Shown here piece by piece: positions 55,199 to 64,000 of a DNA stretch of 64,000 nt. Below the pieces are notes generated by a model. It was given only the letters and a program-made list of their open reading frames with translations, ran no database searches and was not told where the DNA came from. The number at the start of each line of letters is the position of its first letter. Within the stretch, counting starts at the first letter, position 1. Source of the stretch: Spizellomyces punctatus DAOM BR117 (taxonomy: Eukaryota); NCBI GenBank assembly GCA_000182565.2, contig KQ257458.1. One strand, given 5' to 3'. The position numbers were made by a program, and so were the translations under genes.

Positions 55199-57531
55199 TG
55201 TCCGATCTGGCTTCACCATTAAAGAACGCCCCGTCGAAACAGCCGATACTCAGCACCTCCCAGATCACAACATGGCTGACGCATTTGACAAGTCGTTCAT
55301 ATGCGGCCCGTCAACGAGAAGCTGCATCACAAATCCTGGCTTTTCTGCGGTCGCCTCTCAACCCACCCATCGCCGAAACGTCCTTTGAAATAGGCAAGGC
55401 GGAAACCCTAAAAATCATGCTCCTTCTGCGTTCAGGCATGCATCACGTCGACGTAAAAGAGGCCACTCTTCTTTTACTGGCCACCATCATTCGTGGTTCT
55501 TCTCCCGCAACAGCGGCAAGGACAGCGGCGCTGCTCGCCGCTGGTGCGTACAGCAAGATCATATCAATTGCCGCAGATACACGCGACGGCCCAGATCCGC
55601 AAATTGCTGGGTTACGATTCTTCTCAGAATATTTGAATGAGGGCGGCGAGACAGCTGCTCGAAAATTCTGCGGATATGCTGAAGGTGATGCCGGCTCGGT
55701 CACTGGCATGGACATATGCATTCGATCTCTACAAGCGGAGGGGGGGAACGTTCGACTTCAGTATTGGGCTGGAGAGTGTTTGAAGAAAGCCGCTATCTGT
55801 ACGGATATGCGACCCCTAATGTTAGATGCGGGCATTCTGAAACCTCTGGCTACATATATGAAGTTGATCTGCTCTGACGGCTCTTCAGTTCTCCAGCAGA
55901 GTTTGCTTGATTATCACACTTTGCTCTTCGAAAGCGTCGCTTGTCTCCTGAAACTGATAACCACCCACTCTGAAGAGGCAAAATTGGTAAGATGATTGCA
56001 ACACTGCTTTTCAGTATTGGACAACTTTAATCTTGATGAAATAGCTGTTGGTCTCGGAAGGGGTCATCCCATCTATTGTATGGTTGCTACGACAAGAGGG
56101 GCGCAACAGCCAAAAGTTGGAGGTAAGGTTCCCTAAGCGTAAACCGCCGTGTATTGCAGATCTCCTGACCGAAGTTTCAATGCTTTTTACCAGGCGATTT
56201 ACGCGTTCGCGAATGTTGTCATAACGCCATCCAGAGAAGCTGAAGAAGCTATACCGCTTCTACTGCAAGTCGCGGCGGAAAGCACCGATGCATTTGAAGA
56301 AGCGGCCCTACGAGCACTCCGTAATGCCCTTGCACGGACAGGAGAAGGGGTCAGACGACGATTTGTAACAGAAGGAGGTGTTGCCATTCTAGGAAAACAG
56401 TTGGGACGAACCGACCTTCAAATAGTGCAACATAGCATTGCCGGCTTACGGAATGTAGCGCTGTTAGATGTTCCACTCGAAGCCCGGCATCAAGTAGCGA
56501 AATTCTGTCCAGATTTTCTTCATCTTCTCAGTCACAAAGATAAAACCGCCCCAGCATGGAAGATCCATCTCTCGATAACCCACCACGCCCTTTGCACCAT
56601 TTGTAATCTCGCCGTAACAGATACTATTGCCCAAGATATCTCAATAACAGGCCGATCAACACTTTTCTCACACATTTATCGTATCATCTTCGACCGGGAT
56701 ATTCCCGATACACCGTTTCGACTGGACGCACTAGCATGTCTCCGGAATCTTTGCATAGACGAAGACTCTTGTCTTCTCATTGCAAGTATGGGTGTGCCCA
56801 AGCTCTTTGAACTCCTCTTCACAGGCTCACCATTCCTCCGCGCGGAAGCCATGGCAGTCCTACGCAATCTCATCCTCCAAAATCGATACTGTTTCGATGA
56901 ATTTTTCCAAGTGGATGGTTTCATCGACGAACTGGTGGCAGATCTTTCATCGCAGTACACTTCAACCCTCCAGCGTTGCGCGGTAGATATTATCCATTGT
57001 TATTTGACCAAAGGAGATACCGCACATAAACGCACGTTTTACGATGCTGACTGTCTTCCTGCGCTCCTTCTTCCAATGGAAGCCGACAACGAGAACAAAG
57101 ATGTTGCTGTTGTTTGCTTCAGAATTTTGCAGGACTATGAGCGGAGGGCTGTGTTGGAATCCAGGGATCACTGGACGCGGATTTGGGTAGACTGGAAAGC
57201 TGAGGATGCAGAGAGGAAAAATGCTAAGAAAGAGAAGAAGGCTAAGGACCGAGAAGAGCGGGATCGGAGACGAATGAGCCGAAAGCGTGCAAAAAAGGAT
57301 TCACGGCAAGACAAACCCTTTTTTGTCAAGAATACTCAAAACAAGGAGGATGCCAACTTGAGCGTATCGACTCTAGGCAAAAACAAGCATCCCACCGCTG
57401 CGTCCTACAGACGACCAAATTCAGCACCACATGGAATCTTGAAATACAGAGCTGCACTGTCATCAGATGAGAAATACTCGCCTGCAACGAGTACTGTTGA
57501 AGTGAAAAAGCGGGTGGTGACATTCAGATAG
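55199..57531 (+). CDS. Armadillo-repeat protein of unknown function with a basic C-terminal tail
   Basis: Repeated ARM helix-3 motifs AALRALRN, SIAGLRNV, ALCTICNL, ALACLRNL, AMAVLRNL. C-terminal KKRVVTF resembles an RVxF-type motif. 5' end not determined. Confidence 0.7.
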
Positions 57532-57675
57532 CATAAGTCAACCAGGTGCAAATAGATATGTGAATAGGGATGCAATGAGTATTCCATGTATACCGCGCTC
57601 TGCGCATTACGACTGAAAATGGCTATCGATGGTTCTATCTAAAGCATGCTAAAAAATGTATAGATATGTAATCGC

Positions 57676-57820
57676 TCAAATGTTAAAACCTTGCGCCCGC
57701 ATGCAATCCTGATGCGCCTTGATTAGATCTGCACATTTTTCTTCTCCGTGCTCAAATACACATTCGTCTCGCGCTTTCCGCGTGTCCGGGCAAGCACAAC
57801 AAGGTTTGCATTCGGGTTTA
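57676..57820 (-). CDS. COX17: COX17 copper-chaperone domain (C-terminal part of the last YHM2 exon)
   Basis: [47 protein letters not shown]: CCxC copper site with twin CX9C. Confidence 0.93.
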
Positions 57821-58965
57821 GCCCCGGTTGACGTGGATGCGGAGAGGGGCGCTGGGGAGGCAGTTGATGAAACGAGCCTGTTTGCCTGTTTTTGCGCTAC
57901 CCAGGCTTTTAAGCTATCTCCACCAAATACCATGCACACCTATGGAGACAGGTCATTTTAATCTCACTGCCGCTAACCTAGGCAAGATTTAAAGATTATA
58001 CGCACCGTCAAATAGACACCCAAGCCAATACGAGGAGTTACTCCACGGTAGAAGCCGAGGAACCCATTCCTTTGCCAAATCCACTTGGCCGTGTTCAACA
58101 GAGTCATCTTGGCAGGTCTATTGGGGTCTTTCACTTGAGACTGCATTTCGACACGAATCACTTCAATAGGTTGGTTCCAGCATGCAAGGGCACCACCGAC
58201 TACTGAAGCAAAGAGTCGCTCAGACACAGTGAGAGGGTTGGCTTTCTCTCCCTCAGGTCGGAAATAGCGGATGCTAGATTCGGTGATACGCGCAATTCCG
58301 ATTCTACTGCCCCAGTTCGTCATTTGTCGCAAAGCTACAGCTGACACGCCTTTGTTCAATCCCCTGATACCCTCGGTCTTTAAAATATCTCCTGCAACCT
58401 TCCAGGTAGAGACAGCCGCTCCCGGATTCTTGTGGCGAGTAACCTCTACTGTCTTCATAAATGTACAGAATCCCATGGTAGTATACGCCTAAATATGCGG
58501 AGTAATGTCAACGTCGCATTGCACTCGTCCAGTATTCAGAGCGAAAGCTGTATAAACCTCACCTGCGCAACGCCTCCTCCCATTCCGGACAATATTCCGG
58601 CGGTTGGACCAGAGAGCCCCAATTTGGTCCTTGCATGATACTCGATTTCGGACGCGGCAAACAAAAGGATAGCTCCCTTCGTCGAAGCTTCAATCCACGC
58701 CCAGGGAATCAACCCTTGATAGAATCCCGCAATACCTCCACGTTGGTACGTTTTTTTGACGGCTGTTACCAGCGAGTCGTTCCTGTTGGCTGTCAGAGAA
58801 CTCAATAACGTGGACTGGCGAGTTTTCTGGATTTGGCTGGACCATACCTGCCATGTGTGTCTTAACGACCTCAAAGGGCTGTCCAAGCGTTGATACCTCG
58901 AAGGTCTGAATGGCGCCTCCCAAAAGAAGGTTGACATAACTGATGGGTTTCTGGGCGACGAGCAT
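57676..58965 (-). CDS. YHM2: Mitochondrial citrate/oxoglutarate carrier (YHM2 type) fused in frame to a C-terminal COX17 domain
   Basis: [11 protein letters not shown]...[77 protein letters not shown] 66-nt GT-AG intron (58005-57940) joins in phase 0 to the ORF ending in the COX17 domain. Confidence 0.88.
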
Positions 58966-59445
58966 GTTGTTAATATACGTTTAACTAAACTGACTTCCTG
59001 CTCCCGCCACATTTCGTTACGTCCGACCTTCGCAATGTACCTTTTGAATTGAGGCTGGCTCGGACTTTGCTACGACAGACATTGTAGGGAGATCTTGTGT
59101 CAAATTACAACCACAGGAAAGTCGGAAGGGGATAGCAAAGATCTAACGAGACATCACGTGATTTCATTGATCTGCCGATTGGATAAGCGAGGAGTATCGA
59201 TCCGTTGGATAATCTACTTTGTAGCTTTCAGCCAAAAAGTCAGCAGCCATGCTATGCCATGCGCAATATTCAATACTAGGAGAGTAGAGGAATAATCTGA
59301 GAACGTTCAGAGCACGAGTTTATCCGGTTGCACCCTGCGAGTAGATAAGGACATTGGCAGGAGTAATGCATTTTCAATTCTTCCGAAGTGCCAAAACGTA
59401 TTGGTATACATCAGTCACACCATCAACTAACAATCGATAGACTCC

Positions 59446-60814
59446 TCACTTGTCTACTTCACCAGGTAATCCGGATTCCTCCCGAACACTCAACACTACG
59501 CTACCCCAATCCAGATCTCCGTGCCCCTTCTCTAGCTGTTTTTCCAAATGTTCGTACATGACGTCGGCGATATGCAGTTTGGTGGAAGTCTCATCAGCGA
59601 GTCTAAATCATAAGCTCAGTTTCAATACTTGACAAAAAATTTAGAAGTACTATTCGAACCTTCGCATCAGTCCGACATCCTTTAAACCGCCTTTAACTGG
59701 AAAACCAGGGTTGCTGGGAGAAATCGCGAGATTGTCTTGGCAGATTCGGGTTCCGTAGCCTTGAATCACAGGGCATGGCAGCATACTGATTGCCACATAA
59801 GCAGACCACGTTGGAAATGAAAAAGAGGTAGTGACACGTACGTGTTAATAAAGTCGAGGACGTTCTGTCTCGACAATCCACTCTTGTCGGCAAGGGTTAC
59901 AGCCTCGGAGATCATTTCGATGCATGAAGCGATGAAGAAGTTGCCGCATAGCTGGATATTCATTCAGAATCATCGTCAACCACCCGGCCTGTTGCGGTTG
60001 ATGCGGCGACGAGCACCTTACCTTTTGCGTAGTGCCAAGATGGGGCTCAGTCCCAACATCAATGATGGCTCTGGTCATGGCTTCAATATAGGGACGGACA
60101 TCCAGCTTCAGGTTTTCCTCTCCCGCGAATGCTCCAACTGTGAAAACCGTTCAACTATGTTTGGCTGAGATCCACCTAGTCATCCCATTGCTTGGCTTAC
60201 CAAGCAATTTTGCCTTTGCAGCATCCGGTCTGCCAAACATTGGACAGGCAGCAAACCGTACTCCATGGCTCTGCATTTTTGCAGCTACTTCCTTGGTGGA
60301 GGCAGGGTAGACTGTGCTGCAGTCAACCCATATCAAGTCCTTCCTGGGCGGGGCGCCTAAAAAACATCAATTCGATTTTTGTGGGGCGCGTTAGGTAGTC
60401 GTGCTCAAGACAGAAACGCACCAGCGACCTCGTCACAAATCTGCTTCAAAGCGGCATCATCAAACATCATCGAAAACAAAACATCACATTCCTTTGCCAA
60501 TGCCTTAGGGCCATTCTTTTCGACTACAGCTCCCACAGACTCTAGCTCAGAGGCTTTGGACAGTGTGCGGTTCCAAACACGCAGTGATCGCCCGGATTTT
60601 TGGAGAAAAGCTTGGAGGTTGAATGCCATGCCTGCATTGCGTTAACCTAATGGATGTGCTAGGAAGACATGTAAAAGAACAAGTCGTACCACTTCCCATG
60701 GCACCTGTAGAAGGACGCTTAGAGGTCCGTCTTGGATCAAGGTACCGACACCATCTCTGGCACGAAATATTTACCCAATCCCATGAATCCCACCTCTTGT
60801 TTGCTGGTCGACAT
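59446..60814 (-). CDS. NAD(P)-dependent beta-hydroxyacid dehydrogenase (3-hydroxyisobutyrate DH / 6PGDH NAD-binding family)
   Basis: VGFMGLG|AMGS|GMAFNL, VWNRTLSKA, VDCSTVYP, CPMFGRPDAA, KLCGNFFIASCIEMISEA, GGLKDV, DWGSVVLSVREESGL. Confidence 0.88.
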
Positions 60815-61106
60815 GATTCTAAAATCGAAGCTCAGACGTTCTGCTACAGAATAAGAAGGATATTTTGAGTGCCAATTGCGAGGACAAAATCAATCATTTC
60901 CAGGAGAATGATGTGAGTCATGGCTGGATGTGTGGTGACGACAGTGACGTTATTTTGGAATACGAGCAAGTGCCCGGCCCCGACGCCTGTAGCGTTCAAT
61001 GGATTTAACATGACAATATCATAAAAGTGTATTTACGGCAGGGATACCGATATCAAACAAAGCTGGTTCTTACGCCTCTGTTAATGCATCAACCATACTT
61101 TGCCTA

Positions 61107-61185
61107 TACGGGAATGAACCATACTTTATCGATTAGGCAAGCCTATACGACAGGGAATGAACCAGCGTAAACTGGTTCGGAAAAG
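61107..61185 (-). ncRNA. Putative Fanzor omegaRNA (scaffold about 61185-61122, plus flank-derived guide)
   Basis: Starts about 24 nt after the Fanzor stop. Minus strand reads CUUUUCC-GAACCAG-UUUACG-CUGGUUC-AUUCCCU-GUCG-UA-UAGG-CUUG-CCUA-AU-CGAU-AAAGUA, giving two hairpins. The 5' part resembles the SpuFz1 scaffold as recalled (UUUUCCGA..CC..GUU...GGUUCA.UCCCUG). 3' boundary uncertain. Confidence 0.7.
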
Positions 61186-63237
61186 TTAACTAACTGCTAC
61201 TAGACAATCTAAGCTACCAAAGGGACATGTCTACTAAAAATAGCCGGTCTAACACCATCATCTAAATATGATTTCATGATTGTTACCATATTAGACGTGC
61301 TTAATTTGTCCCGATTCCAGTAACGGTAAGTGCATCCTTGCTCTATGCAGTTTGGGTTGGTACAACCTAGCAAGCCATGCACTTTTTCACTACGTCCTTT
61401 CTGACGCTGCCAGGGTCTCGAGTGTGGTCGTATCTTGAATCCCTTTTGCAGATGATCACCTGATAAGCATCTTGGACATATTGATGAGGTTCGATATTCA
61501 TCTAATAGGAAGCAATCGATGCGATTGCATTTGAAACAATTCCGCCATCCAGTGGTTTTCGATGATATCTGGTATTTTTGGGTATGCCCACCATCGCTCC
61601 AATCACCCATTACTACAGCAAAACTACTACCAAAGCATTTCCTCATATTAGATATCAGCTTTGCTTCGGTTCTTTGGGTGTTCATGTAGGTATGCCATCT
61701 CCATCTAGTATGGGCGGGATGCGAATAAAAGTCCTTCAAGGGTGCATCATTGTCGTGGCGCCATGACAGGTAATGAATGTAGCTATCGAGATTCATCGTT
61801 TTATGTGAAGGCGCTGCAGACTCGATGACATCAATGCCATTCTCACGCTTCATTGCTTCGCGGGATTTTTTGAACCTCCTGCTTCCAATCTCTTTGGTTC
61901 TTTGCATGGAAGTATAGCAAAACGTACGCCTCTTTTGAAGATCCCGACAGTATAGTATATCGCGCTTATTGGGATCAATGGTGACGACGTTGGATGCGCT
62001 GCGACAGGCCGTAAGATTATTCTCAATATATTGACTTTTGATATCTGCTTCAATCGCCTGTTCTGAGTTGCGATGCTTGTGTCTGCCATATTTTGCCGCA
62101 TCTGGATGCTTCAGGCAAACTGACATGGAGGTCCCATCCGTCGTTATTGATCCGTCAAATGCCATTCCACTACGCGTCGTGAACGCCTTACTGCCAAGAT
62201 TGCAAACACGCAACCACAAGTCCATTTTGTCAACAGAGTCGTATTCTCGCCATGAGACTTTTAGCACATGTTGATACAGAATCATAGTATCAATGCGAAC
62301 ATGGGATTGGATAAACGATCTTCGCAATGGGATGGCATTAAACAAGGGCAGGCCACATCGTTCGAATAAACGGGATAATGCACAGTGAGACGGAAAAAAT
62401 GACAGCGGATCGCATGCTACAAGATATGCGAGTTTCCCTTCTTTTCCTATGACTCGATCAAGCAAAATATTCCAAATGTCTTCTAATAATGCACTTTCCA
62501 AATTGCTCAGGTCTAGATCATCGGTTTGTGGAATGTCGTCTAATAAGAACAATTGTTTCAGATATCGCAATCTGGCGAAAAATGACATTCTCTCCGCTCC
62601 CAATAGTCTTTTCTGCTGGTTCTTGACGTCTAATCGATAATTGATGAATCTAACTAGCATTTTGACAAAATGCTCTTGGACATTGACTTTAATGTTTGTT
62701 ATGACACTGGTGGTGAGGTAGTTGATGGACTGTTGATCATATTTCAGGTTGGGCCGAGTAAAACCCACAACATTGCAGTACCGATCAATATGGGGCACGA
62801 GGATATCACGGCAATCTTTTTTCGCCATGTTGCCTGGCTGCCAAGCTGCACCTTTATTCAGCAGGTAAAGCGTCGCCTCCATGACAGTTTCATTGATAAT
62901 CGGAAAGTGTGGGCTGGATAGGATGTAGAACTTGAGTGCATGAGTAGCGTGGGCTGCTAGTTCATGGACGATTTGGATATAATTTTGAATGCGATCTCAG
63001 TAGGTATCATTTGCAGCAAAAGCCTTTTCAAAAGATGTCTTGTGACATGAATGGAGGATAGCAGGTTGGTCGACTTTCTGCTTCTTCTTCGGAGGCATCG
63101 TTGAAGATGAAGACTGTGGGAAAATGGGCAACTCATCTTTTAAATACTGGATAGATCTATTATTCATTAGACTAGATATGGGTTTATAGATATTGGACAA
63201 CATTTCATTGGTCGCTTGGGATGAAAATTTTCGATAG
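61124..63237 (-). mobile_element. Non-autonomous Fanzor-carrying DNA transposon (about 2.1 kb), candidate TA target duplication
   Basis: Minus-strand left end CATA|CTATCGA (63241-63231) and right end TCGATAAAG|TA-TG (61132-61120) form a short imperfect inverted repeat with TA on both sides. No transposase inside. Ends are inferred. Confidence 0.55.
61209..63098 (-). CDS. Fanzor1: Fanzor1 RNA-guided RuvC endonuclease (TnpB-derived OMEGA effector); intronless, 629 codons, interrupted by one TGA at codon 34 (62997-62999); residual 557-aa ORF at 61209-62882
   Basis: N-terminal NLS MPPKKKQK. SITTDGTSMSV. RuvC-I VTIDPNKRD (D at 61974-61976), VVMGDWS, RuvC-II LLDEYRTS (E at 61497-61499), zinc finger CPRC...GCTNPNC, RuvC-III WNRDKLS (D at 61308-61310). 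Colinear with SpuFz1 as recalled from memory. Confidence 0.93.
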
Positions 63238-64000
63238 TATGTCATGTGACCATGGGTTATTTATTGTGGATCACTGAAGGGGGTCAGGGGTATTCATTAG
63301 GTAGCTTTCAGTGGAGGCATTTACCAGTGTCTTTTGGGCAAGATTTGAGGATTTTGGATAGTCATTGTTTACATTCCATGCCTGTACCAGCGTCGATCCT
63401 GGCATCCCATGTCTGAATCTTCAGGCCCGACGCGTAGCTAAGCCACCCGCCTCACCCAAACCATCGAGCGCCGTCATCACATTAGAATTGAATGCGGTAG
63501 CTCGAAAGATGTGATTGACCAGTCTAATCACCTATATCATGATGTGCATGCGTTCTACTGCTGCCATAGAACATGTTTTATTTTTGGAATATTCTGTTTT
63601 CGAACATTCCGTTGAGCATGTTTTCCTTCTTCTCGTTCCCCATAGCGCGTGCTCTGCTAGCGTGACGTCACCAACAAGTTGCTGTTATTTAACAGACTTG
63701 AAGCTCTCTGGTACAAAATATTTGTATCCCAGCCGATTTCAACAGCTCCTAAAATTTGGTACTTTACTTTTATATTAGCTTGAACCTCTATGACTACTCA
63801 TGACCCTCAAATGATGTCTTCGTCAGAGTCTATTTCTACGCTGCTGAGATGTCCTCCTTGGTTACTGATAGGAGAGCCCACTGACTGCATCTGAGTTTGA
63901 GTCTGGCCTCCAGGAGCTGACGGCTGACCATCTTTGCTTTTTTTACTGCTACTATTTTGACCGTTGTTGTTACGACCGACACGTGCGAACAGCAGCGACA

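Follow-up and report, generated by a model that had tools for sequence, protein, structure and literature searches.

The closest described relative of the RNA considered here is the omegaRNA of SpuFz1, a Fanzor1 protein of Spizellomyces punctatus whose structure is available (Saito 2023, PMC10432273; PDB 8GKH). All published scaffolds of this group end in the 3' arm of stem 2 followed by UA, after which a guide of 14-15 nt begins, and small RNAs of 88-90 nt were reported at four S. punctatus loci other than the one analysed here. According to the same authors complete loci carry 30-nt inverted repeats (IRs), with the right-end IR overlapping the scaffold and stem 2 and the left-end IR preceded by CA. 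Their study also lists four ghost omegaRNAs (Ghost1-4, file 4), which have a long stem 2, a 74-75-nt scaffold and paired left and right IRs without a Fanzor ORF, and describes such RNAs as usable in trans although they have no gene of their own (PMC10432273).

Shorter scaffolds have also been described. Engineered SpuFz1 scaffolds were trimmed to 52-60 nt with the 52-nt version still active, so that in the account of Saito et al. the 74-75-nt length is unnecessary for activity and stem 2 can do without its distal part (Saito 2023, PMC10432273). A naturally short form is described for PpFz1, whose scaffold with a 4-bp stem-loop 2 was called the smallest known and for which the region beyond stem-loop 1 was said to be possibly unconstrained (Xu et al. 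2024, PMC11423790). The omegaRNAs of bacterial TnpB, for example that of ISDra2, share the general logic of a scaffold derived from the right end, a guide derived from the 3' flank and a RuvC nuclease; the ISDra2 RNA is however described as overlapping the coding sequence and as having a pseudoknot which is absent from the SpuFz1 RNA (PMC10432273), whereas the scaffold described below starts past the stop codon.

Locus and scaffold layout

We analysed a 64-kb stretch of DNA from S. punctatus DAOM BR117 (hereafter the window), in which a minus-strand region of hairpins begins 23 nt past the stop codon (61211-61209) of a Fanzor1 gene on the same strand. The features of the locus, each given with the evidence for it, are the following.

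61209..63098, minus strand: Fanzor1 gene of 629 codons whose frame is interrupted by a single TGA at 62999-62997 (match to 8GKH, frame translation)
61186..61208, minus strand: spacer of 23 nt from the Fanzor stop codon to the first scaffold position (sequence read; the SpuFz1 spacer is 21 nt)
61127..61185, minus strand: putative omegaRNA scaffold of 59 nt, made up of CUUUUCC tail, stem-loop 1, linker, short stem-loop 2 and terminal UA (fold, family pattern, by-eye comparison)
61185-61179, minus strand: 5' tail CUUUUCC (sequence read)
61159..61178, minus strand: stem-loop 1, 7 bp, all paired, with arms GAACCAG (61178-61172) and CUGGUUC (61165-61159) and loop UUUACG (61171-61166) (sequence and RNAfold)
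61152..61158, minus strand: linker AUUCCCU, of the ghost-scaffold type, the canonical SpuFz1 form being AAUCCCU (sequence comparison)
61128..61151, minus strand: stem-loop 2, short form, with a 4-bp outer helix of GUCG (61151-61148) and CGAU (61131-61128) that includes a wobble pair (G.U, U-A, C-G, G-C), a 2x2 internal loop (UA facing AU), a 4-bp inner helix of UAGG (61145-61142) and CCUA (61137-61134), and a CUUG terminal loop (61141-61138) on a G-C closing pair (RNAfold)
61112..61126, minus strand: predicted 15-nt guide, directly after the terminal UA (from the published layout of scaffold and guide)
61102..61121, minus strand: second, incomplete copy of the scaffold that comprises the 3' arm of stem 1, the linker and the 5' arm of stem 2, contains a gap of 4 nt and overlaps with the predicted guide (local alignment)
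61034..61069, minus strand: degenerate scaffold-like remnant, no longer folding (pattern search; fold z +0.33)

Exactly the same two hairpins were returned by RNAfold for 59-, 64- and 74-nt versions of the interval. Sequence and fold are therefore in agreement with an earlier note on this DNA, which had placed two minus-strand hairpins, including a G(CUUG)C tetraloop, at these coordinates. CUUG loops with a G-C closing pair belong to a family of stable tetraloops. The 59-nt scaffold has a folding energy of -18.8 kcal/mol (z -4.49) and none of 200 dinucleotide shuffles folded as well, while the antisense strand folds more weakly (-15.7 kcal/mol, z -2.9). Both C6 and the G of the stem-1 loop are kept, and on a sequence test these could form the C6:G20 tertiary pair described in the SpuFz1 omegaRNA (PMC10432273).

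The 3' end was placed by homology. Stem 2 follows directly after the linker with its helix spanning 61151-61128, then comes A 61127, and the UA at 61128-61127 is the equivalent of the UA with which published scaffolds end, which would give a scaffold of 59 nt (61185-61127) as against the published 75. The earlier note had put the length at about 64 nt and this needs correction, as by homology the last 5 nt (61126-61122) belong to the guide; its view that the scaffold is shorter than that of SpuFz1 holds, at 59 nt versus 75 nt.

Searching Rfam with 60500-61700 produced two noise matches that fell well short of gathering, at E 1.8 and E 7.8, with the E 7.8 match near the scaffold corresponding to an unrelated lncRNA model. 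Since the Rfam matches included no Fanzor omegaRNA family the missing match says little. A promoter and terminator scan using bacterial models, which are not applicable to a eukaryote, found nothing. Elsewhere in the window the flank at 56149-60630 has the look of ordinary host genes, with a large plus-strand ORF (56149-57531) and several minus-strand ORF fragments suggesting intron-split genes, and a run of 125 N at 2680-2804 marks an assembly gap distant from the scaffold.

We also looked for prior descriptions of the locus. The locus tag SPPG_09290, which covers part of the Fanzor1 gene, had no occurrence in the literature searched, and no paper in that literature joined 'Fanzor', 'covariance model' and 'Spizellomyces'. 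Stretches of locus DNA gave no locus match in the Saito 2023 supplements, a search that covered all but supplementary file 2 and MOESM1; one stretch did match, solely via a stem-1 motif common to ghost scaffolds. Peptides and 10-mers of the locus likewise had 0 matches in the Saito 2023 supplements. As the sequence in file 6 is printed in 10-nt blocks it was searched phase by phase with 8-mers, again with 0 matches (all phases in the RNA sense, 6 of 10 in the opposite sense).

Homology and compensatory changes

In order to compare the scaffold with known members of the family we used nine published S. punctatus scaffolds, five canonical (IDs 14, 16, 19, 20 and 23) and four ghosts, taken from Saito 2023 supplementary file 4 ('OmegaRNA sequences' sheet) and the S. 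punctatus rows of file 5. All nine are 74-75 nt long and were compared with 61127-61185 by eye. Judged from this alignment there is homology to the published S. punctatus scaffolds in the 5' tail, in stem-loop 1 and in the linker. By hand count the first 35 nt are identical to Ghost1/2 at 32 of 35 positions and to SpuFz1 (ID16) in 28 of 36 columns, and the tail, stem-loop 1 and linker together are 78-91% identical to the published scaffolds; the last 66 nt of the coding sequence, also counted by hand, are 59% identical to those of SpuFz1 (39/66). A degenerate consensus of the 5' half has a single match in the 64-kb window, at 61151-61181, with 0 expected from 100 shuffles. The scaffold pattern had 0 matches in a collection of bacterial and archaeal genome contigs, and neither blastn nor tblastn, with the locus as query on the window, returned anything beyond the locus itself.

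These results bear on one alternative, namely that the hairpins arose by chance in a 3' UTR and have nothing to do with omegaRNA. Such a reading would sit well with the want of an Rfam match above noise, but it is already contradicted by the unique consensus match, by the fold (z -4.5) and by the collinearity of the interval with the published SpuFz1 locus, and we consider it barely credible. With its conserved position after the Fanzor1 stop and its homology, the interval is taken as an omegaRNA scaffold. The central claim of the earlier note, that it is a scaffold homologous to that of SpuFz1, is likewise supported by position, family pattern and hand-counted identity, and the minus-strand interval 61127-61185 is very likely the gene from which a divergent Fanzor1 element makes its omegaRNA.

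The likeness to the SpuFz1 omegaRNA extends to most of the layout. Both lie in the same genome and at the same site after a Fanzor1 stop, and they share a YUUUUCC tail, a stem 1 of 6-7 bp, a pyrimidine-rich linker ending in CCCUG, a stem 2 that follows this linker directly and a UA that closes the scaffold ahead of the guide. The earlier note had described the SpuFz1 scaffold as having a UUUUCC tail, a GAGCCG/CGGUUC stem and a UCCCUG linker, and all three are present in the published 75-nt sequence. The differences are concentrated in stem 2, which is ~16 nt shorter than in SpuFz1 with different arms and a CUUG loop in place of an 8-nt one; in addition the linker reads AUUCCC versus AAUCCC, and the stem-1 loop, in which two nucleotides differ from the published scaffolds, has 1 nt fewer than in SpuFz1. 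The scaffold therefore lacks the 74-75-nt length and long stem 2 of SpuFz1-type omegaRNAs, and the sequence of its basal stem-2 pairs is unlike that of all nine published scaffolds. With the ghosts it shares the stem-1 arms (CCAG/CUGG type, Ghost1/2) and the AUUCCCUG linker, the arms being those of Ghost1/2 save for the closing pair, which is G-C in the scaffold and G.U in the ghosts. Unlike the ghosts, it has a short stem 2, adjoins a nearly intact Fanzor ORF and has no detected left IR.

A further claim, that the sequence has changed relative to SpuFz1 with pairing retained, is borne out in both stems by hand comparison. In stem 1 the G13-C23 pair of SpuFz1 has become A-U with both sides changed, the same state as in Ghost1/2, and G10.U26 has become A-U, a state shared with most paralogs. 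In the basal part of stem 2 G37-C73 has become U-A and U38-A72 has become C-G, with G39-C71 unchanged and the G36.U74 wobble kept. Compared with SpuFz1 there is consequently one compensatory pair in stem 1, already present in the published Ghost1/2 scaffolds, and there are two at the base of stem 2, where covariation is uncertain because it comes from a single sequence whose alignment past the basal pairs is unreliable. What the locus shows directly is the homology, the position, the fold and the compensatory changes in the two stems.

The published scaffolds vary among themselves at the pairs 8-28, 10-26 and 12-24, each of which can be G-C, A-U or G.U, and this variation fits pairing on the RNA-sense strand alone. 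This is relevant to the question as to whether the hairpins might work as DNA, forming a terminal or subterminal transposon structure recognised by a transposase. Both strands of the interval are able to form hairpins and the overlap of the published right-end IR with stem 2 would suit such a role (PMC10432273). Against it stand the basal G.U of stem 2, which like the G.U exchanges in the family fits the RNA-sense strand alone, the failure to find a matching left end, the report of Saito et al. that they found no transposase within these elements, and the detection of the homologous sequence as SpuFz1-bound RNA by RNA-seq and cryo-EM (PMC10432273). We regard a role of the hairpins at the DNA level as very unlikely.

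Taking the interval as an RNA scaffold, its conservation on the present alignment tracks the contacts in the SpuFz1 cryo-EM structure. U5, C6, C7 and the stem-1 loop contact the protein there, the linker contacts R415, R419, N480 and K483, and the base of G37 contacts K312, whereas stem 2 from C40 to G70 is described as making no contacts and as removable (Saito 2023, PMC10432273). It is this contact-free stem 2 beyond the base that makes up the changed part of the scaffold. The equivalent of G37 in our scaffold is U, which counts against the omegaRNA reading. The 61127-61185 scaffold is a true member of the already described SpuFz1-type omegaRNA family and as such nothing new in kind. It comes from a Fanzor1 sister lineage that has diverged within this genome, and its stem-loop 2 is naturally shortened.

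The adjacent Fanzor1 gene

The longest open stretch of the Fanzor1 gene, 61209-62882 on the minus strand, encodes 557 aa. It matches the SpuFz1 structure over the full length of the ORF (PDB 8GKH, E 1.7e-227) as well as PpFz1 (E 1.3e-47) and GtFz1 (E 8e-9); the 557-aa query itself had no match in Pfam. The reading frame starts further upstream, at ATG 63098, with a SpuFz1-like N-terminus (MPPKKKQK...) and is open apart from the TGA at 62999-62997, which is codon 34 and falls at the site of SpuFz1 Arg39. Owing to this TGA the locus lacks the single uninterrupted ORF of a complete Spu-1 Fanzor element, although the stop may possibly be a sequencing error or a polymorphism. A product restarting past it would be without the N-terminal PPKKKQK (labelled NLS-like in this analysis) and the WED residues H21/T22. 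The public model SPPG_09290 (P0007; S. punctatus DAOM BR117, 316 aa) is identical to residues 19-319 of the ORF at 300 of 301 positions; it covers part of the gene, ORF residues 19-318, and then departs from the frame.

The window protein, cognate to the scaffold, is ~61% identical to SpuFz1 and retains the RuvC motifs (IDPN, LDEY, WNRD; D/E/D) and the zinc-finger cysteines. From the presence of one stop and no frameshift at ~39% protein divergence we infer long purifying selection followed by a recent knock-out. Other S. punctatus Fanzor proteins among the database matches are at most 60% identical to the window protein; the SpuFz1 set is reported to share ~82% identity (Saito 2023, PMC10432273). 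In a quick maximum-likelihood tree of 28 proteins it forms a long branch (0.53) whose sister clade holds 11 other S. punctatus Fanzors and two environmental proteins (SH-aLRT 96). This terminal branch is ~2x the depth of the sister clade and may point to relaxed constraint.

With a view to the protein-RNA interface we looked at 28 SpuFz1 residues for which contacts with the omegaRNA or with the first guide pair are published, of which 19 are identical in the window protein. The changes are T22S, R315T, R419S, K483R, R531C, W596C, M607K and C611S together with a deletion of S598, the last being our reading of a two-residue alignment gap to 8GKH as S598 + G599. W596, S598, M607 and C611 are altered or deleted solely in the window protein among 13 aligned, and all four lie on the SpuFz1 surface that binds the stem-1 loop (PMC10432273). 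Taken with the nucleotide changes in the stem-1 loop these substitutions may be either protein-RNA co-variation or decay. The altered state of these four residues and the changes at R315, R419 and R531 count against the omegaRNA reading.

The condition of the gene raises the possibility that the whole locus is a dead relic, in which a decaying element has lost part of stem 2 through deletions in its palindromic right end, pairing merely reflects ancestry and no functional RNA is made. The premature TGA and the long protein branch speak in favour of this, as do the occurrence of the scaffold type as a single copy in the 64-kb window and the finding of no close protein relative above 61% identity. 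However simple deletion of a published stem 2 cannot yield the observed sequence, in which both arms differ and yet still pair under a CUUG cap, and by our hand counts conservation is far higher in the 5' half, which contacts the protein, than in the coding sequence next to it. Moreover the ORF has just one stop in 629 codons, and the ghost omegaRNAs described by Saito et al. illustrate use in trans of scaffolds that have no gene. Given the premature stop, selection on the RNA may nevertheless be past and not present.

Element ends and the right flank

No left-end IR matching the right end was found in 63096-64000, ~900 nt upstream, where the best local score of 16 was below the shuffle mean of 19.4. 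The repeat listing for the window contained no left/right inverted-repeat pair for the scaffold end, and with 3 mismatches allowed a SpuFz1-type left-end motif stayed at noise level, with 3 matches where 4.3 were expected. At 63231-63241 on the minus strand, ~135-145 nt upstream of the Fanzor ATG, CATAC is followed by TATCGA; the latter corresponds, in reverse complement, to the final 6 nt of the scaffold, and the SpuFz1 TAM is CATA. This is the sole hint of a left end and the similarity ends after 6 nt.

The right flank shows signs of rearrangement. The partial copy at 61102-61121 aligns to the scaffold with a score of 29, which was reached by ~0.2% of 493 random window segments, a null whose maximum of 118 means that the scaffold itself was among the segments drawn. 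Two direct repeat families lie in the same region, D1 and D17, with D1 representing a duplication of the 10-nt right flank at a distance of 26 nt. GGTT microhomology is seen at the repeat junctions within 61091-61126 on the minus strand, and this stretch resembles a tandem duplication or a scar of templated repair within the predicted guide and target. The remnant at 61034-61069 consists of a stem-1 5' arm, ~18 nt, a linker and the start of stem 2, and suggests that the site once had another, older right end; its pattern was chosen post hoc, after the sequence had been seen, and had 2 matches with 0 expected. The downstream remnants are unfolded (z ~+0.3). The missing left-end IR and a rearranged flank with remnants that do not fold both add to the case for a relic, and the locus itself looks partly disabled. 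Weighed with the evidence from stem 2, the 5' half and the ORF, we nonetheless think it rather unlikely that the scaffold is simply dead, and the present activity of its RNA is uncertain.

On the reading that we prefer, a SpuFz1-type omegaRNA gene, the RNA would be transcribed from the right end of the element with a start ~23 nt after the Fanzor stop, as homology with SpuFz1 suggests. The scaffold would dock on the RuvC, NUC and WED surfaces as that of SpuFz1 does, and a 3' guide from the flanking DNA would direct TAM-dependent double-strand cleavage. Its expression, binding, guide boundary and TAM are predicted here from homology with SpuFz1. With its own Fanzor gene interrupted the RNA would need a Fanzor protein in trans or else be a recent relic; today it would be used by intact paralogous Fanzor proteins or be a recently orphaned remnant. 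By analogy with the ghosts it may rely on Fanzor proteins provided in trans.

A stem 2 of this small size is compatible with function because the 52-nt trimmed scaffold works and PpFz1 has a 4-bp stem-loop 2. Trimmed SpuFz1, PpFz1 and the present scaffold all have a short stem-loop 2 with ~4 bp at its base, and by this analogy stem-loop 2 would naturally be about the size found sufficient by engineering in Saito et al. The sequence of the basal pairs differs from that in trimmed SpuFz1 and PpFz1, and the Fanzor lineage differs from that of PpFz1; the trimmed SpuFz1 and PpFz1 scaffolds have been shown to work, while the scaffold in the window is a putative one.

A bolder proposal is that S. punctatus contains a second and older Fanzor1 lineage with a natural minimal 59-nt omegaRNA that co-evolved with its protein and is compact and orthogonal to SpuFz1. 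The two changes in the stem-1 loop would then go with W596C, the loss of S598/G599, M607K and C611S. The ghosts share the stem-1 and linker states of this lineage. As the window protein falls outside the remaining S. punctatus Fanzors in the tree, the ghosts may have preserved the ancestral type of scaffold, and the copies in the flank would be possible scars of cleavage and repair. We put this forward tentatively and consider it unlikely in its entirety.

For the family, the SpuFz1-type scaffold described here opens no new class of system but adds a naturally occurring example from a sister lineage, and does so in the genome on which the definition of Fanzor omegaRNAs was based. Its tail, stem-loop 1 and linker appear near-fixed while the protein has diverged to ~61% identity and stem-loop 2 has been free to shrink to a small capped hairpin, a pattern of conservation which agrees with both the cryo-EM contacts and the engineered truncations. 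The scaffold may find use as a ready-made compact form, and could serve to test whether related Fanzors keep to their own guide RNAs.
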